IMG/VR virus record: IMGVR_UViG_2700989496_000004
DNA: 37,032 bases
Reading direction: 5' to 3' (one strand)
From: a virus
Taxonomy: Duplodnaviria > Heunggongvirae > Uroviricota > Caudoviricetes
Every line of letters starts with the position of its first letter. Positions within the stretch are counted from its first letter, which is position 1. Positions 229 through 37,032 of this stretch are shown here, one piece after another. The notes under the pieces are model-generated. The model was not told where the DNA came from, made no database searches, and saw nothing but the letters and a program-made list of their open reading frames with translations. The position numbers and the translations under genes are program-made.

Positions 229-801
229 TTACATTTCAGGTTGCGTTATGACAGTCCCAACAGGGTGATAGCGGTAGATCGTTGACAGTCCAATATCATA
301 GATAATTGCCAGCCGCTTTCTGTCATACCCTTTCTGGAGCAATCTTGCGATCTGCTCATGCTGCTCCTTCGTCAGTTTCGGGCGACGTCCTCCAACTCTT
401 CCTTGTGCTCGCGCAGCAGCCAGTCCAGCCAGCGTGCGCTCAACTATCAGTTCACGCTCCATTTCTGCCAGTGCACCCATCATATGAAAAAAGAACCTTC
501 CCATCGGAGTGCTGGTATCGATTGAATCCGTCAGACTGCGAAAATTGACACCTTTTGCGCGTAGCTCTTCTGTGAGAGCAATGAGGTGTTTCATTCTTCT
601 ACCCAACCGATCCAGCTTCCAGACCACCAATGTATCCCCTCTTTTAAGGCACTTTAAAGCGCGTTTCAGGCCTGGTCGTTCCGACTTGGTTCCGCTCATT
701 TTGTCCTCAAAAATCTGTTCACATCCTGCGCACATTAATGCATTGCGTTGCAAATCTGTGTTTTGGTCATTTGTTGACACACGTATGTAGCCAATCAGCA
801 T
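229..801 (-). CDS. gin: Serine DNA invertase, Gin/Hin/Pin/Cin family
   Basis: Protein begins MLIGYIRVSTNDQNTDLQRNAL, close to Mu Gin as recalled, about 190 aa. AAGGGAG lies 8 nt upstream of the ATG at 799-801. The 233-aa track ORF carries an unlikely N-terminal extension. Confidence 0.93.
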   Translation of the reverse strand: MLIGYIRVSTNDQNTDLQRNALMCAGCEQIFEDKMSGTKSERPGLKRALKCLKRGDTLVVWKLDRLGRRMKHLIALTEELRAKGVNFRSLTDSIDTSTPMGRFFFHMMGALAEMERELIVERTLAGLAAARAQGRVGGRRPKLTKEQHEQIARLLQKGYDRKRLAIIYDIGLSTIYRYHPVGTVITQPEM

Positions 802-857
802 TAAAAATACTCCCTTTTGAGTGGTTAAAGTACTGAGATAATGTGGGGAGGATTTGA

Positions 858-885
858 GAGATAAACGTTGGTTTGGGGGAAGGCT
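858..885. repeat. cix/gix-like crossover site 1
   Basis: Reverse complement reads CCTTCCCCCAAACCAACGTTTATCTC. It sits at the 5' edge of the conserved fibre segment shared by all three cassettes. Boundaries approximate. Confidence 0.55.
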
Positions 886-1301
886 CGGCGCTGCCCGTTG
901 GTGTACCTGTTCCGTGGCCCACTGCCACACCGCCAGCAGGCTGGTTAAAGTGCGACGGGCGCGCCTTTACAAAAGAACAATATCCTGTTCTGGCCAGAGT
1001 CTACCCGACCCTCCGTCTTCCCGATTTACGCGGTGAGTTTATCCGTGGATGGGACGACGGGCGAAAAGTGGATACAGGGCGCGATCTGCTTTCACGGCAG
1101 GATGGTACAAGTTTTTCTCATTACGCAGGTAATTTTGACATTGGGTCTGGTCATTCAATCAATAACTATGACCAAATCGTTGACAACCAACCTGGATTCT
1201 CCCGTTTTTCATTTGCAGGTCCTTCGCGAGGCGATGGGGTTAATTATGTGACCATTCGTCCCCGTAACATTGCGTTTAATTACATCGTAAGGGCGGCATA
1301 G
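873..1301 (+). CDS. Silent alternative tail-fibre C-terminal cassette 1 (no own start or promoter)
   Basis: First ~70 codons (GEGSALPVGVPVPWPTATPPAGWLKCDGRAFTKEQYPVLARVYPTLRLPDLRGEFIRGWDDGRKVDTGR) are identical to an internal segment of the expressed fibre 2394-3731. The tail then diverges and ends ...RPRNIAFNYIVRAA. Confidence 0.75.
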   Translation: MGEGSALPVGVPVPWPTATPPAGWLKCDGRAFTKEQYPVLARVYPTLRLPDLRGEFIRGWDDGRKVDTGRDLLSRQDGTSFSHYAGNFDIGSGHSINNYDQIVDNQPGFSRFSFAGPSRGDGVNYVTIRPRNIAFNYIVRAA

Positions 1302-1325
1302 AAACGTTGGTTTGGGGGAAGGCTC
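1298..1325. repeat. cix/gix-like crossover site 2
   Basis: AAACGTTGGTTTGGGGGAAGGCTC repeated at 1302-1325, same orientation as site 1. Boundaries approximate. Confidence 0.55.
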
Positions 1326-1773
1326 TGCATTGCCTGTTGGTGTACCGGTTCCATGGCCCACCGCCACACCGCCAGCAGGCTGGTTACAGTGCAACGGAGC
1401 TACGTTCACCAAAGAACAATATCCTGTTCTGGTCAGAGTCTACCCGACCCTCCGTCTTCCCGATTTGCGCGGTGAGTTTATCCGTGGATGGGACGGTGGT
1501 CGCAAGGTTGATACCGGGCGTGCGCTACTTTCATTTCAGGAAGGGACTATCGTATCCGGTTTTGATGATAATGATACCGGAGATATCAGTTCGCTCGGCT
1601 CTACACAATACGGATTTGGTGACGCTTTAACCTCTAATCAACTGGGGGTCTTAAATGGCAAAAAGTGGATATTTGATGCATCCTCTAAAGGTGCACAAAG
1701 ATATGACTGGTGGGCTTATGTATCAGCTCGCCCCCGCAATATCGCATTTAACTATATCGTGAGGGCGGCGTGA
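1312..1773 (+). CDS. Silent alternative tail-fibre C-terminal cassette 2
   Basis: Begins GEGSALPVGVPVPWPTATPPAGWLQCNGATFTKEQYPVLVRVYPTLRLPDLRGEFIRGW, then a distinct tip ending ...RPRNIAFNYIVRAA. No start codon of its own. Confidence 0.75.
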   Translation: MGEGSALPVGVPVPWPTATPPAGWLQCNGATFTKEQYPVLVRVYPTLRLPDLRGEFIRGWDGGRKVDTGRALLSFQEGTIVSGFDDNDTGDISSLGSTQYGFGDALTSNQLGVLNGKKWIFDASSKGAQRYDWWAYVSARPRNIAFNYIVRAA

Positions 1774-1779
1774 TACCGT

Positions 1780-2394
1780 TCAGCCGGCAAGCGCCAGTGG
1801 CGCTTCCGGCCAGCTGATTTCAGGTGCCTTGCTGATATCCAGTGCGTTCAGCTCGTCGATATAATCCAGCACGGCGTTCAGTTTTGCCGTTTCTTCTGGT
1901 TTCAGACTGCGACCAGCACGCAGTTTGAGGTTGATAAGATCGACGGACGCCATCGCCTGTTTCACCCGTTGCTGGCGTTGCTGTCTGGCAACCTCCAGTT
2001 CTGCGGCTCGCTGCCGTTCAGTATCGGTTACCCACGCCTCACCGTTCCAGGTATCCCATGGCGTGGCTGGCTGTTTTGTGGTGGTGTCCGCCGGGTAATC
2101 ACCCGGTTGGGTAATCAGAACGGGGTTACCGTTCTCCGTGCTGTATACCGTCTCGCCGCGGTGATCAGGCACATGCTCCCACCCGTTCAGCGTGGCAGTC
2201 CGGCAAACCACGTAACCCGAAATTGCTTCCGGCGGTGCATCGGCGCACGAATGTGCCGGAGTACCCACCCCAAGGGCGAGATACTCCACAGAGGATGAGG
2301 TGTATTCCCGGGTTTCCTCGTCATAGTGATATACAGTGATATCGCCCGCTACAGTGGCGATACCGTTTTCATCCAGAACTGCAGTGTTACTCAT
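1780..2394 (-). CDS. Tail fibre assembly protein (Tfa, Mu U-like)
   Basis: 204 aa immediately downstream of the fibre gene, start overlapping the fibre stop. Call rests on position and recalled Tfa-like character. Confidence 0.7.
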   Translation of the reverse strand: MSNTAVLDENGIATVAGDITVYHYDEETREYTSSSVEYLALGVGTPAHSCADAPPEAISGYVVCRTATLNGWEHVPDHRGETVYSTENGNPVLITQPGDYPADTTTKQPATPWDTWNGEAWVTDTERQRAAELEVARQQRQQRVKQAMASVDLINLKLRAGRSLKPEETAKLNAVLDYIDELNALDISKAPEISWPEAPLALAG

Positions 2395-3731
2395 TAAACT
2401 GCCCTCACAATGTAATTAAGTGCAATGCTACGGGGTCTGACAGTGATACCCTTCGCATACCCGCTTCTGATAGAGGTCAGAATAGTAGCCTGCATACCAT
2501 TGTCTGACATTGCCACGACAGGATCGCTGAATGTTGTCCCGTCCGGCATTTTAAAGCTGCCCTCACGAAGGTCTGTAATGGAATCTTCATTGTTGAATCC
2601 CATGCCGACTATCCCCGAGGTTCCCGTAGTGTCCTGGTTATAATAATCCAGCATTGCTGTTCTTAACAGCGTTGCCCCTTGTGCGGACAGCAACTTACGT
2701 CCTGTATCAACTTTGCGCCCGTCGTCCCATCCACGGATAAACTCACCGCGTAAATCGGGAAGACGGAGGGTCGGGTAGACTCTGGCCAGAACAGGATATT
2801 GTTCTTTTGTAAAGGCGCGCCCGTCGCACTTTAACCAGCCTGCTGGCGGTGTGGCGGTGGGCCACGGAACAGGCACACCAACGGGTAGCGCCGAGCCTTC
2901 TCCTAAACCAAGGTAATTGAGGACATCTTTTATACTGCCCTTAGCGATAATAGCGCGACCAATAGCTGTAAGGGTTGCCAGCTCTGCGCGGTCTGCTCCG
3001 GTAAAATAAGGCAACCGATCTGCTGCAGTGGCAAGTCCTGCCAGAGCAGTGAGCGTGGCATCTGCCGGTTGTTTTCCGTTTGCCAGATCGTATGCAGCCT
3101 TGACCGCTTTCGGTGTGGCGGCCAGTATTTCAGACGTGCTGTTGATGGCACTGCTCAATTGTACGGTGCCTTTTGCCGTCAGCGAGGCAGCAGGCACTCC
3201 CGTTATCTGACTCCACGGGTGAGTGTGGCTGACGGGCGCCTTGCCGGCTGCAAGGTCGTATGCAGCCTTGACCGCCTTCGGCGTGGCAGCCTCAGTTTCT
3301 GATTGACTGTCCGTGGCGCTGCTCAGTTGTACGGTGCCTTTTGCCGTCAGTGAAGCCGCAGGCACTCCCGTTATCTGACTCCACGGGTGAGTGTGGCTGG
3401 CAGGCGCCTTGCCGGCTGCCAGGTCGTATGCAGCCTTGACCGCTTTTGGTGTGGCGGCCAGCGTTTCAGAGGTGCTGTTGGTGGCACTGCTCAGTTGGGT
3501 GAACCCCTTAGCTGTCAGTGTCGCGTCCGGGTGGTTACGGGAACGTACGTGTTCAGCCAGTGACTGTGCGGCTTCCTCCGTTTTCTTCTTCAGCCATTTC
3601 GTCCTGTTTGCCAGTTGCCGGGGGGCTCGATTTGATATCCCGTCTGCACCACCCAGAACCGGATCTGATGTCTCCAGTTGATAGATATTTTCTTCCCACT
3701 TTTCTGTTTCATTCAGGTTTCCCATAATCAA
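2394..3731 (-). CDS. Tail fibre protein (constant N-terminal part plus currently expressed variable tip)
   Basis: 445 aa with three ~55-aa tandem repeats (TAKG..QLSSA..S.SE..AATPKAVKAAYDLAAGK...HTHPWSQITGVPAASL) followed by the conserved crossover segment and a tip ending ...RPRSIALNYIVRAV. Start overlaps the stop of the upstream gene. Confidence 0.88.
   Translation of the reverse strand: MIMGNLNETEKWEENIYQLETSDPVLGGADGISNRAPRQLANRTKWLKKKTEEAAQSLAEHVRSRNHPDATLTAKGFTQLSSATNSTSETLAATPKAVKAAYDLAAGKAPASHTHPWSQITGVPAASLTAKGTVQLSSATDSQSETEAATPKAVKAAYDLAAGKAPVSHTHPWSQITGVPAASLTAKGTVQLSSAINSTSEILAATPKAVKAAYDLANGKQPADATLTALAGLATAADRLPYFTGADRAELATLTAIGRAIIAKGSIKDVLNYLGLGEGSALPVGVPVPWPTATPPAGWLKCDGRAFTKEQYPVLARVYPTLRLPDLRGEFIRGWDDGRKVDTGRKLLSAQGATLLRTAMLDYYNQDTTGTSGIVGMGFNNEDSITDLREGSFKMPDGTTFSDPVVAMSDNGMQATILTSIRSGYAKGITVRPRSIALNYIVRAV
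2893..2920. repeat. cix/gix-like crossover site 3 (inverted relative to sites 1 and 2, inside the expressed fibre gene)
   Basis: Minus strand reads ACCTTGGTTTAGGAGAAGGCTCGGCG..., i.e. TTCTCCTAAACC-AA-GGT on the complement. Homology to cassettes 1 and 2 begins here. Boundaries approximate. Confidence 0.55.
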
Positions 3732-5740: not shown

Positions 5741-5794
5741 GGGGGCAGTATTGCCCCCGTGCGGGAACGCTGATATTAAAGGCGTTTAAAAAGC

Positions 5795-6391: not shown

Positions 6392-7542
6392 TTTTTCTTC
6401 TCCTTAATCACCGTCGATGTACTGCCATCCGGGTGATAAACCGTGAGTTTCTGAGTTTTTTGTTTTTTCCCTCTTGTGACTGGCCCCCGTGCCACTTCCA
6501 GCTCTGTGGTGTAGCCGCTGTTACGGTCAAACGCATGGCGGGCAGTGGTTATGAGCCATGGCCCGGATAACTGCCCAAAACTCACCAGTTCAATTTTGTT
6601 GCCTGCTGTCAGTTGAGGTGTTCCCGTCAGCGTCAGGGAGCCGTTCTGCTGGTATTCGTTATGTCTGGCCAGTGCTGAATCCGCTTTAATCCGGGCACTG
6701 TCCGGGTCGCTGACGCGGCTGTTAACTTTAAGTGAGTCAGCGCTGGTAACCTTACCACCTTTGAGCTTTTTGTCGCTTTCACGGGTACCACCATCAGCTT
6801 CGTAGACGATCAGTTTTTTACTGCTGCTTTTCTGGTGTTTTACCTTTGCAGATTTATAGACCCGGTTGATGGTGTCACGCAGGGAAAAGCGGGCCACATC
6901 CTGCGGTTTTAACTGCCTGACCGGCTCCTGACTGCGCAGTGTGGCCAGATGAGAAAAAATCAGCTGGTCACTGACCACTTTCACTGCATAACCATACTCG
7001 CTGGCCAGCCGGCGCAGAAAACCCACGTCGGTTTCAGCATACTGGGTCACCCGGTCGATTCTGATGGACTCAATGCTGCCCACCAGTTTCAGCCGGTGCT
7101 TTCTGGCAATCCGCCCCGCAACAGCTGCCAGCGTGGTGTTCTCAAAACCACGACTGGTTTTAGTCCGCAGGGCACTGTTAACCGAGGTGGCCACCCCACG
7201 GATAGAAACAACGGAAGCGGGCGAACTCACTTCGATCTCGTCTATAGAGAACGTACCGCAGGACAGCAGCTTCTCGCCCTGATAGCCCATTTTCAGCGTC
7301 AGCGTGTCACCCTTGCCCGGATACCATTTATCCAGCCAGCGGCCATCGGTGTCGTCCAGCTCCACCTCAATGGTATCGGACTCATTTTTGATGTTATCGC
7401 TCCAGGTCACACGGGTGACATAAGGCGCGATATCAGAGGTGATGTTTTTCTGCAGATACCACAGAGTGAACACCGGTGTCAGCACATCGCTGACGCCGGT
7501 TAACGCTGATGTGACTTGCGCAGTGCTGTTTATCTCAGCCAT
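6388..7542 (-). CDS. Tail protein, P2 gpD / Mu gp44-like
   Basis: 384 aa, follows the gpX-like gene and precedes the baseplate genes, translationally coupled. Confidence 0.7.
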   Translation of the reverse strand: MAEINSTAQVTSALTGVSDVLTPVFTLWYLQKNITSDIAPYVTRVTWSDNIKNESDTIEVELDDTDGRWLDKWYPGKGDTLTLKMGYQGEKLLSCGTFSIDEIEVSSPASVVSIRGVATSVNSALRTKTSRGFENTTLAAVAGRIARKHRLKLVGSIESIRIDRVTQYAETDVGFLRRLASEYGYAVKVVSDQLIFSHLATLRSQEPVRQLKPQDVARFSLRDTINRVYKSAKVKHQKSSSKKLIVYEADGGTRESDKKLKGGKVTSADSLKVNSRVSDPDSARIKADSALARHNEYQQNGSLTLTGTPQLTAGNKIELVSFGQLSGPWLITTARHAFDRNSGYTTELEVARGPVTRGKKQKTQKLTVYHPDGSTSTVIKEKKK

Positions 7543-12070: not shown

Positions 12071-12167
12071 GATTGTGCTCCTGTGTAAGTTCAGGGCAGT
12101 ATGTCGGGAGAAGCGCGTGACGGATATTAAAGGAGATTAAGAAGAAGGGGCCGGAGCCCCTGTGATG

Positions 12168-25105: not shown

Positions 25106-25456
25106 TTAAAGCCCCATCGCAACAGCCAGGCAGACCGCTGCAACAATCAGTGCACGGCGGATTAACGCAGCAGAAAACACCAGGTGAAGGCCGGTCTGTA
25201 CCGGGAAACGCCCTTCAGCCATCAGCCTGTCGTCATGTTTCAGGTACTGACCGGGACGGGCTTTGGGGAAGAGCGAACGGTCAAGCCAGTAACCCAGCAC
25301 TGCTGCCAGCGTGATGAGTGCCAGCTTGTAGATCACAACAGGCAGCTGCTGTGGTGAGACCAGAGCGATGGTGCCCAGCAACAGCACTGAGGTCAGCAGC
25401 CAGCCGCTGAGGCGAGGTTTTTTAACAGGGGGAATGAATTTTTTCAGGTTTTTCAT
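25106..25456 (-). CDS. Three-transmembrane membrane protein, first gene of the late operon (holin-like)
   Basis: Start at internal Met (MKNLKKF...) with AAGGAGA 6 nt upstream. Three predicted hydrophobic helices. Confidence 0.5.
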   Translation of the reverse strand: MKNLKKFIPPVKKPRLSGWLLTSVLLLGTIALVSPQQLPVVIYKLALITLAAVLGYWLDRSLFPKARPGQYLKHDDRLMAEGRFPVQTGLHLVFSAALIRRALIVAAVCLAVAMGL

Positions 25457-25586
25457 GTGTGTCTCCTTATCTGGTGGAGACAGCATCACAAATACAGGGC
25501 GCGAAGGATTTTAAAGCGCGTTAAGAGAGCCGGGGATACGGGATGTGCAGGATAAACGATGAATTATTCACAGAGGAGAATACGAT

Positions 25587-26315
25587 ATGACGCAGACACT
25601 GAATCCGGTCATCACTGTCACCGTGTCCGGTCCTGTGGGCAGCGGTAAAAGTTACGTACTGGCGCGAATAGAGGAAGTGGTGAAACAGGAATTCGGAAAC
25701 AGCGTCATTGTCGACGCCGCAGACGTGGACGGTGAGCGCCGTATGAGTGGGGATGATCTGAGCACATGGCAGAAACCACGGGCTGGCACAGTGATCAGGC
25801 TGGAGGAATACACGGGACAGGGCCTGTTGTCATACGGCGAGGAGCGTATCTGTCGGACGAATGAGCTGCTGGATGTTATATGCCCCACGGGCCGGCAACC
25901 CTGGATACTGCCCGATGCACTGCATGCCACCATTGCGGCACTGATGACAGTTTACGATCAGGAGCTGCTCATGAAGGAGTTACGTAAACTCACTGGTCAG
26001 TCAACAGAATGTTGTTCGTCCCCGAAGTACGGCAAACAGGAACACATCCCGATTAACCAGCCTCCCCGGTTCTTCGACGAATACCTTCTGACACCGGAAA
26101 ATAAAGCTGAGCATGAAGAGATCAAAGCGGCGTTGTTCCGGGAAATCAGGAAGATTGCTGAAATGCAACTGGAGGGCGGGCTGGACAGAGTGATGGCGAG
26201 AGGAGAATGGGCATCGCTGTTTGAAAGAGTTTCCCCGGAATTACTTCCCCTCGCACTGGCTATCGGGATTATGCAGACAGCGGATAAACCTCACTTACGT
26301 TCATTAAACACGTAA
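25587..26315 (+). CDS. Walker-A (P-loop) protein of unknown function
   Basis: 242 aa with GPVGSGKS at residues 15-22 and a possible short Walker-B-like VIVDAAD. AGGAGA ribosome-binding site 7 nt upstream. Transcribed divergently from the late operon. Confidence 0.65.
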   Translation: MTQTLNPVITVTVSGPVGSGKSYVLARIEEVVKQEFGNSVIVDAADVDGERRMSGDDLSTWQKPRAGTVIRLEEYTGQGLLSYGEERICRTNELLDVICPTGRQPWILPDALHATIAALMTVYDQELLMKELRKLTGQSTECCSSPKYGKQEHIPINQPPRFFDEYLLTPENKAEHEEIKAALFREIRKIAEMQLEGGLDRVMARGEWASLFERVSPELLPLALAIGIMQTADKPHLRSLNT

Positions 26316-26695
26316 CGCATAATCCGGGATACGCATTCAGCGATGACTGCATTTTCACCGGTTTTTACTGCATCCAGAAGTGACTCTTTAAATGGTACGG
26401 GCCGGGGCTGCAGAAAGGTCGGCATGGCATTGAGCAGACAGAGCGTTTTTTCCGTGAGGACGACATCAGCCGCTCCCACAGCCAGCAACTGAGAGTAACG
26501 AATATAGCTGTTATCCCGAAGCCATATCAGCGTATCAATAAAACACCGGCACTTTTTCTGGTCGTGATCAACCTGGTCCGGGATATCGAAAAAACCAGAA
26601 TAAATCAAAACCTGAGGTGCCGGATGCGTGTTCAGTAATCGGCAGAATATTTTGCCGGTGAGTACATAAAAATCATCATTTAAGGAGTGCATCAT
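26291..26695 (-). CDS. Hypothetical protein
   Basis: 134 aa, 3' end overlaps the Walker-A gene by 25 bp (convergent), start overlaps the start of the next gene on a CATG. Lower GC than the structural genes. Confidence 0.5.
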   Translation of the reverse strand: MMHSLNDDFYVLTGKIFCRLLNTHPAPQVLIYSGFFDIPDQVDHDQKKCRCFIDTLIWLRDNSYIRYSQLLAVGAADVVLTEKTLCLLNAMPTFLQPRPVPFKESLLDAVKTGENAVIAECVSRIMRYVFNERK

Positions 26696-26909
26696 GAATC
26701 CCCGATTAACGTTAACAGAACATCAGCGCCGTGCTGAAGCAGTGAACAATGTTCTGGAAGATATTATCCGGTTATACCGCGGAGAACTGAGTGTCTGTCG
26801 TGCCGCTTTTCATTTTCAGGGAATACAAAAGCAGTTTGATACTTCTGTTTTTGCAGAAGGTATTACTTATGCCCTGGACCGGATAAGGTCAGAAAATCGC
26901 CCCGGATAA
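26694..26909 (+). CDS. Hypothetical small protein
   Basis: 71 aa with AAGGAG 7 nt upstream of the ATG. Confidence 0.5.
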   Translation: MNPRLTLTEHQRRAEAVNNVLEDIIRLYRGELSVCRAAFHFQGIQKQFDTSVFAEGITYALDRIRSENRPG

Positions 26910-26963
26910 TCCCTAAACCACATTAACAGAAATCCCGCCATCCCTGCCGCATCATGAAAGAAC

Positions 26964-26995
26964 GACCAGCCCGGCACCCGAAAGCCGGGCTGGTC
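26964..26995. other. Stable GC-rich hairpin (12-bp stem, 8-nt loop)
   Basis: GACCAGCCCGGC-acccgaaa-GCCGGGCTGGTC between the 71-aa gene and dam. No U-tract on the plus side, weakly U-rich on the minus side. Confidence 0.6.
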
Positions 26996-27099
26996 ATCGC
27001 CCCACAGGAATGCGCTGTGAGCCGACCAAGGTTCAGTCAGTCTCGCGAGACCTGACCAGACTGCCATATTTTTTAATAATTGTAAAAGGCTTGCAGATT

Positions 27100-27864
27100 A
27101 TGAAAATGCAGACATTACCCATCGTGCCGTGGATTGGTGGCAAACGCCGCCTTGCAAAACACATTCTGCCGCTGTTTCCGGCGCATGAATGTTATGTGGA
27201 GCCGTTTTGTGGGGCAGCAGCGCTCTATTTTCTTAAGACACCCGGCAAGATCGAAGTCATCAATGATATCAACGGTGAACTGGTGAATCTGTACCGGGTG
27301 GTAAAGCATCACCTGGAAGAATTTGTCCGCCAGTTCAAATGGGCGCTGGTCAGCCGTCAGATCTACAAATGGCTGCAGATCACCCCGGAAGAAACACTGA
27401 CGGATATCCAGCGTGCGGCACGGTTCTACTACCTTCAGAAGCAGGCGTTTGGCGGCAAGGTGGCAGAGCACAGCTTCGGTACCTCCACCACATCCCCGCC
27501 ACGCTTCAACCTGCTACGTATTGAAGAAGAACTGTCAGCGGCACACCTGCGGCTTTCCAGAACAGTCATAGAACACATGGACTGGCAACAGTGCATTGAG
27601 CGTTATGATCGTCCGCACACGCTGTTCTACTGCGACCCACCGTACCTGGGTACGGAAGGCTATGGTGTGGATTTTCCTGAAGGGAACTACTCGCGGCTGG
27701 CAGAGCTGGCCCGGTGCATCAGAGGAAAAATGATAATTTCGGTGAACGACATCCCGCAGATGCGCGAGGTGTTCACTGGACTGAACATACAGACAGTGAA
27801 TATCAACTACAGTCTGGCGGGTAAACCCACGCCGCGCCGTGAACTGCTAATCTGCAACTTCTGA
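27100..27864 (+). CDS. dam: DNA N6-adenine methyltransferase (Dam-like, DPPY class)
   Basis: N-terminal WIGGKRRL and catalytic DPPY (FYCDPPYLGT). Start taken at ATGAAAATG with AAAGG upstream; the track ORF carries a 30-aa N-terminal extension. Confidence 0.85.
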   Translation: MKMQTLPIVPWIGGKRRLAKHILPLFPAHECYVEPFCGAAALYFLKTPGKIEVINDINGELVNLYRVVKHHLEEFVRQFKWALVSRQIYKWLQITPEETLTDIQRAARFYYLQKQAFGGKVAEHSFGTSTTSPPRFNLLRIEEELSAAHLRLSRTVIEHMDWQQCIERYDRPHTLFYCDPPYLGTEGYGVDFPEGNYSRLAELARCIRGKMIISVNDIPQMREVFTGLNIQTVNINYSLAGKPTPRRELLICNF

Positions 27865-27871
27865 AACAAAA

Positions 27872-27894
27872 CCGGAAAGCACAATGCTTTCCGG
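27872..27894 (-). terminator. Rho-independent terminator (repressor transcript; possibly bidirectional)
   Basis: Perfect 10-bp stem CCGGAAAGCA/TGCTTTCCGG with 3-nt loop, followed on the minus strand by TTTTGTTT. Confidence 0.65.
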
Positions 27895-27980
27895 TAAACC
27901 AAACAACTTCCACTATGTCACTGGCGATGTTTTCTGAAAGCATCCAGATCAACCACCTGTCCTTTGTGTCCGGGTCAGTA

Positions 27981-28337
27981 TCAGCCTGCGATTTTTCCTG
28001 GTTTTGGCTGAGTATAGAATCGCCCAATCTCAAGAAATGAGCGTTGTTGGTCTGGTGTCATGTCGTCAAAAGTATCTATTAGTTTTTGTTTTTCTGGGGA
28101 AATTTGATTCTGGTTTCTAGTCATACCATCTGTGCTCATTCCAGTGAGCAACCAATTTACATCAACATTAAACTCTTGATGCATCTTTAACAGAAACTCC
28201 CCTCCAGGCATCGCCTTTCCATTTTCAATCTGACTGATACCACCATTAGAAATACCTAAACGAGCTGCAAATTCTCTCTGGTTCAACCCTGCTTTCTTCC
28301 TCACAGAAATAACGCGCTCTCCTATATCTTTGCTCAT
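27981..28337 (-). CDS. XRE-family HTH repressor (CI-like immunity repressor)
   Basis: 118 aa with N-terminal HTH (GLNQREFAARLGISNGGISQIENGK). AT-rich gene (~40% GC), divergent from the early operon. Confidence 0.8.
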   Translation of the reverse strand: MSKDIGERVISVRKKAGLNQREFAARLGISNGGISQIENGKAMPGGEFLLKMHQEFNVDVNWLLTGMSTDGMTRNQNQISPEKQKLIDTFDDMTPDQQRSFLEIGRFYTQPKPGKIAG

Positions 28338-28354
28338 AAAAGTGAATCTCTATC

Positions 28355-28383
28355 TTGATATGCTCATAATTATGAGCAATAAT
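28355..28383 (+). promoter_or_regulatory. Early promoter with an 18-bp perfect palindromic operator in the spacer
   Basis: -35 TTGATA (28355-28360), 17-bp spacer, -10 AATAAT (28378-28383). Operator TGCTCATAATTATGAGCA (28361-28378) is a perfect palindrome, and a further TGCTCATAA half-site overlaps the repressor start codon (28331-28339). Confidence 0.6.
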
Positions 28384-28430
28384 CTAACACATATAAGGCA
28401 AACATCATTGCATCAACAAAGGAGACAACG

Positions 28431-28619
28431 ATGACTGCAGAACAAGTCAAAGCTCTCTTCCGCCAGCGCGGGATCACTTTCACCCGCTGGGCAGAAGAAA
28501 ACGGCTACAACCGCAATGAGGTATACCGCGTTCTCAACGGGCAGACCAAAGCCCGTTACGGTAAATCCCATGAAATCGCCGTGAAGTTGGGACTGAAATC
28601 AACAGCTCAGGCGGCCTAA
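28431..28619 (+). CDS. Small Cro/Ner-like DNA-binding protein (first early gene)
   Basis: 62 aa with AAGGAGA 5 nt upstream, positioned as cro/ner relative to the repressor. Confidence 0.6.
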   Translation: MTAEQVKALFRQRGITFTRWAEENGYNRNEVYRVLNGQTKARYGKSHEIAVKLGLKSTAQAA

Positions 28620-36221: not shown

Positions 36222-36671
36222 ATGCAGAAAAAACGCCTGATACAGCTTATCCATATTGCCCGTAATGAACTGGGTATGGATGAAGACACCTACCGCCAGA
36301 TGTTACAGGGGCTGACCGGTAAAGCCTCAACCAAAGGAATGGATACCACACAACTAAACTGCGTGCTGGAATCCATGAAAAAGAAAGGCTTTCGCGTTAA
36401 ACCAGCCAGAAAAGCCAGCTCCGGTTTACCGCTTGATAACCATCCGCAGTCCAGGAAAATTCGTGCGCTATGGCTTGAAATGGCTGCTGCCGGCATTGTT
36501 CGTGACCGTTCAGAAAATGCATTAGCGAGGTGGATCAAGCGGGAAACGGGCATCAGCGCCCTGCGCTGGCTCAGTACTGAACAGGCAAGCAGTGTTATTG
36601 AGAAACTGAAGAAGTGGCAGCGCAGAGCTGCGGGAGTCAAACATGAGCGACCTGAATCAGTTTCGAAGTAA
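36222..36671 (+). CDS. GemA-like protein (Mu gp16, DUF1018-type)
   Basis: 149 aa, N-terminus MQKKRLIQLIHIARNELGMDEDTYRQMLQGLTGK resembles the gp16/GemA family as recalled. AGGAGA ribosome-binding site. Confidence 0.6.
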   Translation: MQKKRLIQLIHIARNELGMDEDTYRQMLQGLTGKASTKGMDTTQLNCVLESMKKKGFRVKPARKASSGLPLDNHPQSRKIRALWLEMAAAGIVRDRSENALARWIKRETGISALRWLSTEQASSVIEKLKKWQRRAAGVKHERPESVSK

Positions 36672-37032
36672 GGGGCCGGAACTCCTGGTGGAACTGGCAC
36701 AGCATACCTCTGAGACCGTTCGCGAGATTATTGATATTGAGCCCGAAGTTGCCGACCAGATTGGTCAGGCCGTCGCGAACCGAATGATGCAGGTCTGGGG
36801 CGGGCAAAACGTTTATTTCCCGATGGGCATGGTATGGAAGGTCAGTCAGCGCGACCGGGAAATCTTCAGGGAGTTTAACGGACGCAACCACCACGAACTG
36901 GCCCGCAAATTTGGTGTTTCGCTTCAGTGGGTCTACAGCGTGGTTAAGCGGGTAAGAAAAGAAGAACTGGATCGGATGCAGGGCAAGCTATTTGCTGATG
37001 AACCCGATGCAGATACGGAGAAAAAAGAGTAA
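36643..37032 (+). CDS. Mor/C-family transcriptional activator (middle/late operon regulator)
   Basis: 129 aa; C-terminal FNGRNHHELARKFGVSLQWVYSVVKRVRK resembles Mu Mor/C HTH as recalled. Window ends at its stop codon. Confidence 0.65.
   Translation: MSDLNQFRSKGPELLVELAQHTSETVREIIDIEPEVADQIGQAVANRMMQVWGGQNVYFPMGMVWKVSQRDREIFREFNGRNHHELARKFGVSLQWVYSVVKRVRKEELDRMQGKLFADEPDADTEKKE

Follow-up and report, generated by a model that had tools for sequence, protein, structure and literature searches.

The 37,032-nucleotide (nt) virus record IMGVR_UViG_2700989496_000004, here called the window, is a complete transposable prophage, as judged from its map of open reading frames (ORFs) and from family searches. 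The host element is a BcepMu-like transposable phage, Phi2 of the pandemic Escherichia coli ST131 (EC958). Our subject is the stretch of about 2.4 kb between its holin gene and its repressor gene. A sequence-only reading had placed there a 242-amino acid (aa) protein with a Walker A motif, two smaller ORFs, a strong hairpin and a Dam-like methyltransferase gene, and had proposed that they form a cargo module of the defence, anti-defence or toxin-antitoxin type. Every feature that it named was found where it had been placed. The principal elements of the locus are as follows.

25509-25527, strand not assigned: late-promoter core with the dyad TTAAAGCGCGTTAA (25511-25524), the proposed site at which a Mor/C-type activator would act on the lysis operon, at the left edge of the variable region.
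about 25550-26950, strand not assigned: three-gene cassette (ORF242-ORF134-ORF71), a block that is present or absent by comparison with KE50-type prophages.
25587-26315, plus strand: ORF242, a mosaic protein with a Walker-A mini-domain, a middle module and a C-terminal module.
25587-25820, plus strand: the N-terminal Walker-A mini-domain of ORF242, about 75 aa.
ORF242 residues about 177-240: the C-terminal module, which travels with the ORF134/ORF71 pair.
26291-26695, minus strand: ORF134, which encodes a winged-helix protein that ends in a pair of helices and is located antisense, with ORF242 and ORF71 on either side.
26694-26909, plus strand: ORF71, which encodes a small protein and meets ORF134 head to head, with a strong Shine-Dalgarno sequence (AAGGAG) inside ORF134 codons.
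26954-27102, plus strand: structured Dam leader of about 150 nt, defined by a covariance model and by covariation.
27100-27864, plus strand: orphan Dam-family N6-adenine DNA methyltransferase, M.EcoMIV (EC958_1101) of EC958 Phi2 (PF02086, TIGR00571).
27981-28337, minus strand: HTH_3 repressor, where the variable region ends on the right.

ORF242 carries the Walker A sequence GPVGSGKS and also the sequence VIVDAAD that is considered below. Its 3′ end shares 25 nt with the 3′ end of the convergent ORF134, whose ATG in turn shares the sequence CATG with the ATG of ORF71. ORF134 begins with two methionine codons, and the second ATG may be the true start, which would leave a 1-nt gap to ORF71 as is found in Serratia. 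The hairpin (26964-26995) has a perfect stem of 12 base pairs (bp) with a predicted free energy of -28.9 kcal/mol (z = -5.8 relative to shuffled sequences). The methyltransferase belongs to the D12 (Dam) class, with matches to PF02086 (E-value 6e-29; score 102 bits, cutoff 22) and TIGR00571 (score 116.6 bits, cutoff 114.85), and with the DPPY motif present as CDPPYLG in the translation. The local drop in GC content is modest but real, at 0.510 for the block and 0.559 for the late genes, and the values for ORF134 and ORF71 are 0.462 and 0.444.

The three small ORFs look like real genes. ORF242, ORF134 and ORF71 are all annotated by the Prokaryotic Genome Annotation Pipeline (PGAP), and they correspond to PHROGs 3787, 2266 and 4490, none of which has an assigned function. 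Pairwise ratios of nonsynonymous to synonymous substitution rates (dN/dS), calculated from few substitutions, are 0.16-0.6 for these ORFs (about 0.2 for ORF242 and 0.3-0.6 for ORF71) compared with 0.04-0.09 for Dam. Neighbouring genes diverge unevenly, as in a mosaic. As had been noted from the sequence, none of the three proteins matches a curated family, here in searches of Pfam, NCBIfam, PADLOC and the PDB, and no literature on them was found by locus tag, protein accession or PHROG number.

The limits of the cassette are evident from E. coli KE50, in which the late-promoter core is joined directly to sequence beginning at window position ~26955, namely the hairpin and the rest of the region upstream of Dam. 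Thus, ORF242, ORF134 and ORF71 constitute a discrete block of about 1.4 kb located between the promoter region and a separate Dam unit. On the left side, an alignment of holin-proximal DNA reveals that positions 25474-25530 are conserved in every relative and that the sequences differ rightward of this segment. The 2.4-kb stretch as a whole is not one module, because Dam and the hairpin form a separate and more widely conserved unit, in which the hairpin falls within the Dam leader.

Related prophages have the lysis cassette and the early operon in common and differ in the contents between them. In KE50 and AREA_C483, the gene order is holin, Dam, a 401-aa protein with the NA37 nucleoid-associated protein, and then repressor. 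In this alternative cargo (L007, 4063-6278, E. coli KE50; also L010), the 401-aa protein has a KwaA-like C-terminus (PADLOC E-value 8e-5) and may form a Kiwa-like defence pair with NA37. The slot of strain 10034292-3 is occupied by a truncated ORF242 and two unrelated genes, that of strain 503829 and Klebsiella KP12 by a DUF2441 protein, and that of relatives in IMG/VR by lipoproteins and other small genes. In Serratia there is an 89-aa protein equivalent to the C-terminal module of ORF242, followed by homologues of ORF134 and ORF71 and then Dam, and in Salmonella there is a 258-aa relative of ORF242 with the ORF134/ORF71 pair, without Dam. Among 5426 complete E. coli genomes there are 636 that have the flanks and 499 that have the ORF134/ORF71 region, which is present at 80% of its length or more in 492 of these 499 carriers (about 9% of complete E. 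coli genomes), with all of these counts inflated by clonal ST131.

The comparison across related prophages thus bears out the swapping of cargo that had been anticipated, and there is good support for regarding the block as accessory cargo that is dispensable and mobile. The part of the proposal that survives is a non-core content exchanged among collinear prophages. The single module does not survive, and no membership in a known defence, anti-defence or toxin-antitoxin family could be demonstrated.

Mobility is also seen in the ORF134/ORF71 pair. The ORF134 family is limited to Enterobacterales prophages, and a scan of genome contigs for its relatives yielded 3 loci only. Homologues with ~30% identity to ORF134 are located in the hotspot between gpA and the portal gene of P2/186-like prophages, and each of them has a divergent partner of 63-64 aa whose start overlaps by 2 nt, with the same layout as in the window. 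This gpA-portal hotspot of P2-like phages has been shown experimentally to be a reservoir of anti-phage systems (PMC9122126; bioRxiv 10.1101/2022.05.12.491691). The E. coli, Serratia, Salmonella and P2-like pairs all retain an ORF of 63-73 codons in the relative position of ORF71. ORF134 and ORF71 are therefore a self-contained mobile pair, and the C-terminal module of ORF242 is a lineage-specific third component, which is homologous to the 89-aa Serratia protein and co-occurs with the pair in four lineages. In both phage backbones, the small partner is co-directional with the upstream genes and ORF134 lies antisense between them. This arrangement suggests that the partner may be reached by read-through, with mutual interference between the two directions. 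No sigma-70 promoters consistent across homologues were found around the ORF134/ORF71 junction.

Two kinds of natural variant of the pair were observed. A deletion of ORF134 codons 19-134 that leaves ORF242 and ORF71 intact is found in contigs L024 and L028 (~6746-6799) and in NZ_CP051738 (H191), and it occurs in at most 7 of the 499 complete E. coli genomes that have the region. Two other contigs (L059, 6188-6970; L027, 7528-8168) have an additional, solo gene resembling ORF134 (126 aa, hhalign 98.5%), positioned after ORF71 and before Dam. A duplicate of the Dam leader and a 5′ fragment of Dam border this gene, which looks like the footprint of an insertion.

ORF134 has the helix-strand-helix-helix-strand-strand topology that is characteristic of solved winged-helix domains, and its fold is nearest to those of MarR-type regulators and Z-DNA-binding domains. 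Of the searches that had been recommended, the profile searches gave no family for the three proteins, and a Foldseek search of ORF134 against viral models returned nothing significant. The name DUF2513 attached to a UniRef relative of ORF134 was not reproduced, with 0 family members matching PF10711 and weak RecJ_C matches only. The T7 proteins gp5.5 and gp5.7, a lead from the annotation of phage Midge, were rejected at hhalign probabilities of 0.1% and 0.3%.

Close homologues of ORF242 are found in E. coli alone, and an exhaustive profile search indicates that only its first ~75 residues are widely shared. This N-terminal domain stands at the head of mosaic proteins (150-364 aa) that continue into C-terminal parts built of shuffled short modules, and it also occurs free-standing, at 70-90 aa, in unrelated phages. 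Examples of the free-standing form include P0143, P0146 and P0152 among others (contigs L039-L048, some longer than 100 kb), and in P0164 (159 aa) the mini-domain is fused behind a PG_binding_1 domain. Truncated versions of ORF242 with 141-182 aa are common. In 28 diverse domain sequences, residues G15, G20 and K21 of the Walker A motif GxxxxGK[ST] are invariant or nearly so, and E50, a loop glutamate, is the only conserved acid. The sequence VIVDAAD had been described as resembling a Walker B motif. This assignment does not hold, because D43 is not conserved and varies among D, E, V, T, S and C across the family. Three strands are predicted for the domain, and an AlphaFold2 model from a shallow alignment had a predicted local distance difference test (pLDDT) score of 42 and was unusable. 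Profile matches to PDB entries are weak and cover only the beta1-loop-alpha1 segment. The possibility that the domain marks a fixed backbone gene was rejected, as it is not found in KP12, KE50, 503829, Serratia or BcepMu.

The left edge of the variable region is formed by the late-promoter core, which is unchanged across the E. coli, Klebsiella, Salmonella and Serratia relatives. Two further sets of sequence elements are relevant to transcription from this location.

25547-25552, plus strand: CAnnAT, a -10-like hexamer about 30 nt to the right of the dyad, and the putative start of rightward transcription of the cargo and Dam.
644-657, 5776-5789, 12127-12140 and 25511-25524: TTAA-N6-TTAA dyads.

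The four TTAA-N6-TTAA dyads in the window compare with 0.17 expected, and three of them (5776, 12127 and 25511) are located in intergenic gaps upstream of late operons on the minus strand. A gene for a Mor-family activator is present at 36643-37032, at the right end of the window. The dyads are candidate binding sites of this activator, and the one at 25511 would be the late-activator site of the lysis promoter. Mor and C sites in Mu are centred near -43.5. If this geometry applies here, the leftward transcript would start near 25474, which is 18 nt before the annotated holin ATG, and a possible rightward transcript would start near 25560, just past CAnnAT and 26 nt before the ORF242 ATG. The C, A, A and T of the hexamer are invariant in all 7 of the aligned relatives, including KE50, where Dam follows directly, and no sigma-70 consensus promoter was found in 25457-25586. 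Thus, the plus-strand genes appear to hang from a promoter that is back to back with the late lysis promoter. Together with published data on the lysogen (PMC4659465), this arrangement suggests that their expression would be favoured in the lytic phase over the resting prophage. A short inverted repeat, TCTCC-N9-GGAGA (25463-25481), overlaps the holin ribosome-binding site on the minus strand.

The hairpin is one part of a larger structured leader. The hairpin and about 110 nt that follow it are kept upstream of Dam in all relatives that carry Dam, with compensated changes visible. The helices of the model are listed here.

26966-26973 with 26986-26993: helix 1, the hairpin of the sequence-only reading.
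27015-27023 with 27088-27096: helix 2, which covers the Shine-Dalgarno region.
27029-27038 with 27054-27062: helices 3/4.
27070-27075 with 27081-27087: helix 5.

A covariance model built from 12 sequences recovered the leader (E-values between 1e-42 and 4e-3) in over 40 additional Mu-like viral contigs, where it directly precedes Dam. In the leader alignment, 90.9% of cells are paired compared with at most 48% in slid controls, double changes are present in 24 of the 31 pairs, and the covariation score is 0.347 compared with at most 0.073 for slid partners, all counted on a model-fitted alignment that is biased towards the structure. The right shoulder of helix 2 (27088-27096) holds the GG of the Shine-Dalgarno sequence and ends 3 nt before the Dam ATG, and double changes are found in 7 of its 9 pairs across 44 distinct sequences. 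The Dam start that is common to homologues is at 27100 (254 aa) and not at 27010. There is no match to Rfam in 25200-28500.

The leader and Dam are found in two settings. In the simplest relatives, the unit adjoins the late lysis promoter and diverges from it, and in distant relatives it is located directly after a co-directional late gene. In Mu-like contigs from IMG/VR (L082-L144), there are Dam homologues of 65-75% identity with the leader, often within about 2 kb of the contig end. Forde et al. reported that M.EcoMIV is poorly transcribed in the lysogen and that no motif of its own could be assigned to it (PMC4659465). The position of Dam near the late promoter or the end of the late operon, the helix that covers the Shine-Dalgarno region and the low transcription of M.EcoMIV in the lysogen together suggest that Dam is most likely a late-expressed, translationally gated DNA-modification function that follows the logic of Mu mom. 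A role for ORF71 as a Com-like activator of Dam was considered and rejected, because the protein contains a single Cys and because KE50-type prophages, which lack ORF71, also carry the leader. GATC is depleted across the whole window (95 sites compared with about 145 expected), and the phage encodes its own Dam-family methylase.

These features mark the region between the lysis and late operon and the repressor as an accessory-cargo slot filled in two layers, with Dam and its leader as one layer and the inserted three-gene cassette as the other. ORF242, ORF71 and Dam would be carried on one rightward transcript, with ORF134 read from the opposite strand, and consequently the two gene sets would interfere with the expression of each other. 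The three proteins may act together. Most likely, the cassette would provide a dispensable phage-conflict function, by which it would either exclude or defend against other phages or counter the defences of the host. We estimate the probability of this conflict-cargo model at roughly one half. The conflict role is suggested by the genomic context, by the Kiwa-like alternative cargo, by the lower GC content and by the pair that is common to the P2 hotspot. Likely late expression of the plus-strand genes would fit the exclusion of competitors, the countering of host defences, or the tuning of the late functions of the phage itself.

Several observations weigh against this model. Neither ORF134 nor ORF71 has a match in PADLOC-DB v2.0.0 at E-values up to 1, and ORF242 gives only P-loop noise (best E-value 0.003). 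The same is true of Pfam, NCBIfam and the PDB, where nothing beyond P-loop noise was found for the three proteins. The conserved Walker-A unit of ~75 aa seems too short to make up a canonical NTPase core of five or more strands, and in a minority of its relatives GKN replaces GK[ST]. There is a diverged C-terminal module without the pair in contig L015. The winged-helix domain of ORF134 is slightly acidic (pI 5.8), and for this reason the protein may bind another protein rather than DNA. If the plus-strand genes are expressed late, a classical defence in the prophage state becomes less likely. The cautions already attached to the genome counts and to the leader alignment belong here as well.

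More tentatively, the locus might include an element of a new kind, either a three-component phage-conflict system or a cis-regulatory RNA, and we hold these two only as a joint suggestion. The signature of the former would be a winged-helix gene that lies antisense, enclosed by the genes for a mosaic protein and for a small partner that abuts it, with a head domain that would be a natural, free-standing Walker-A mini-domain of ~70 aa, representing a minimal phosphate- or nucleotide-binding family distributed across phages. In the latter case, the Dam leader would gate translation of the phage methylase and serve as a Com-independent analogue of Mu mom control.

Another explanation is that the cassette regulates the development of its own phage, wherein ORF134 is a DNA-binding regulator and ORF71 its modulator, tuning the late or lysis promoter, Dam, or the choice between lysis and lysogeny. 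The resemblance of ORF134 to MarR-type regulators and Z-DNA-binding domains would suit this role, as would the location of the cassette beside the late-promoter dyad and ahead of the Dam leader, its switch-like nesting of sense and antisense genes, and the DinI/Tum-like SOS genes that neighbour the pair in P2/186-like phages. However, there are many near-identical prophages that lack the cassette and yet retain the late promoter, the Dam leader and the lysis genes. In addition, ORF134 alone is lost in natural variants, its winged-helix domain is not basic, and the same pair works in two unrelated backbones whose regulatory circuits differ. We consider a regulatory module of this type unlikely.

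Less likely again is a toxin-antitoxin-like addiction or abortive-infection pair that stabilizes the prophage, with ORF134 as the toxin and ORF71 as the antidote. The variants that drop ORF134 and retain ORF71 (L024, L028 and about 7 of the 499 genomes) have changed in the direction expected if ORF134 is harmful, and a mobile unit of two genes for small proteins in phage hotspots is also in keeping with such a pair. Against this, the genes diverge head to head, unlike an autoregulated operon read in one direction, no toxin or antitoxin family is matched by either protein, and ORF134 is a winged-helix protein without a catalytic domain. Moreover, the solo ORF134-like paralogue of L059 and L027 has no partner, and in one contig (L057) an intact ORF134 homologue is accompanied by a shortened partner.

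That the three ORFs are functionless, decaying recombination debris carried along with Dam is very improbable, because although ORF242 is extremely mosaic and often truncated and neighbouring genes diverge unevenly, dN/dS is below 1 for all three ORFs, the region is intact in 492 of the 499 carrier genomes, the frames of ORF134 and its partner are kept at 20-30% identity across genera and two phage backbones, and the G-x4-GK of the N-terminal domain is invariant across distant phages.

The remainder of the window agrees with the assignment of the phage. Over the 2.4 kb of the block there is 100% identity to Escherichia phage PhiKM, a Bcepmuvirus according to GenBank, and the phage is likewise 100% identical to EC958 prophage Phi2. 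Matches to the block were also obtained in several hundred E. coli chromosomes, of which many are ST131. The early transposition genes and the late genes diverge around the repressor in a layout that agrees with BcepMu. Thus, BcepMu rather than Mu is the proper comparator, and the earlier comparison of this locus with Mu was misplaced. The late and lysis genes are on the minus strand and end at the holin gene (25106-25456). After the repressor, the early operon on the plus strand encodes a Ner-like protein, an IclR-HTH protein, a DUF3102 protein, the rve transposase, a B-like ATPase, Gam, GemA and Mor. One further feature adjoins the repressor gene.

27871-27895, minus strand: an 11-bp hairpin followed by a T-run on the minus strand, the terminator of the repressor gene and the sole content of the slot between Dam and the repressor.

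This second slot holds other genes in KE50, KP12 and L016. Between the repressor and the Ner-like gene there are operator-like palindromes (28323-28386), including TGCTCATAA/TTATGAGCA at 28361-28378 and a 17-nt inverted repeat (28323-28339 and 28370-28386), and these overlap a promoter-like site at 28355-28383. The left end of the window carries a Gin-type invertase (229-930) and an invertible tail-fibre segment within 229-3731. The segment has 229-nt inverted repeats at 865-1093 and 2686-2914 that are 94% complementary, a third copy at 1304-1532, and alternative Collar-domain fibre ends on the plus strand. It agrees with the inversion of Phi2 reported for EC958 (PMC4134206).

The cassette belongs to Phi2 of the pandemic ST131 clone and is intact in about 9% of complete E. 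coli genomes, and yet its three proteins have no described family. A cargo hotspot is now defined in BcepMu-like transposable phages, with a portable gene pair that is common to the P2 defence hotspot, and the 1.4-kb cassette is a concrete and clonable candidate for screens of phage conflict. The ~75-aa Walker-A domain family could inform how minimal P-loop proteins work in nature. The Dam leader, as a new RNA element supported by covariation, would control a modification enzyme that is expected to do harm if expressed at the wrong time.

Among known systems, the position of the cassette is equivalent to that of BcepMu gp18-gp20, which lie between the repressor gp17 and the holin gp21 and are also small uncharacterised genes. 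In contrast, gp18-gp20 run in the same direction as the late operon, no BcepMu ORF has the N-terminal domain of ORF242, and the annotation of that region lists no Dam. ORF134 can be compared with winged-helix regulators (MarR/PadR), with Z-alpha/Z-beta domains and with kleisin winged-helix domains, but it differs by having no sequence-family match, an acidic-to-neutral surface and an extra C-terminal helical pair. ORF242 shares with P-loop NTPases, including minimal designed proteins (PDB 6c2u, 9jix), a beta1-GxxxxGK[ST]-alpha1 element whose G, G and K are invariant, but its conserved unit is only ~75 aa, has no conserved Walker B and includes one subgroup with GKN.

The Dam unit resembles the com-mom operon of Mu, which is late, C-dependent and translationally gated. 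In both cases, a modification gene is located downstream of a late promoter of the Mor/C type, a putative one in the present phage, and a predicted RNA helix would occlude the ribosome-binding region of Dam. Moreover, distant relatives have Dam after the last of the late genes, a location that recalls that of mom at the right end of Mu. The differences are that the enzyme is Dam-family and not Mom, that there is no Com-like zinc-finger protein (given the single Cys of ORF71 and leaders that exist without it), and that the leader is unrelated in sequence and structure to anything in Rfam.

The closest parallel to the slot itself is the gpA-portal hotspot of P2-like phages, which includes tin, old and the systems of Rousset et al. 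2022 (PMC9122126). The slot described here differs in that it belongs to a BcepMu-like backbone between a late promoter and the repressor, its cargo matches no validated system, and its plus-strand cargo is probably under a late-type promoter rather than being expressed in the prophage. In both cases, however, there is a fixed slot whose content is swapped between near-identical phages, and the ORF134/ORF71 pair is found in the P2 hotspot too.

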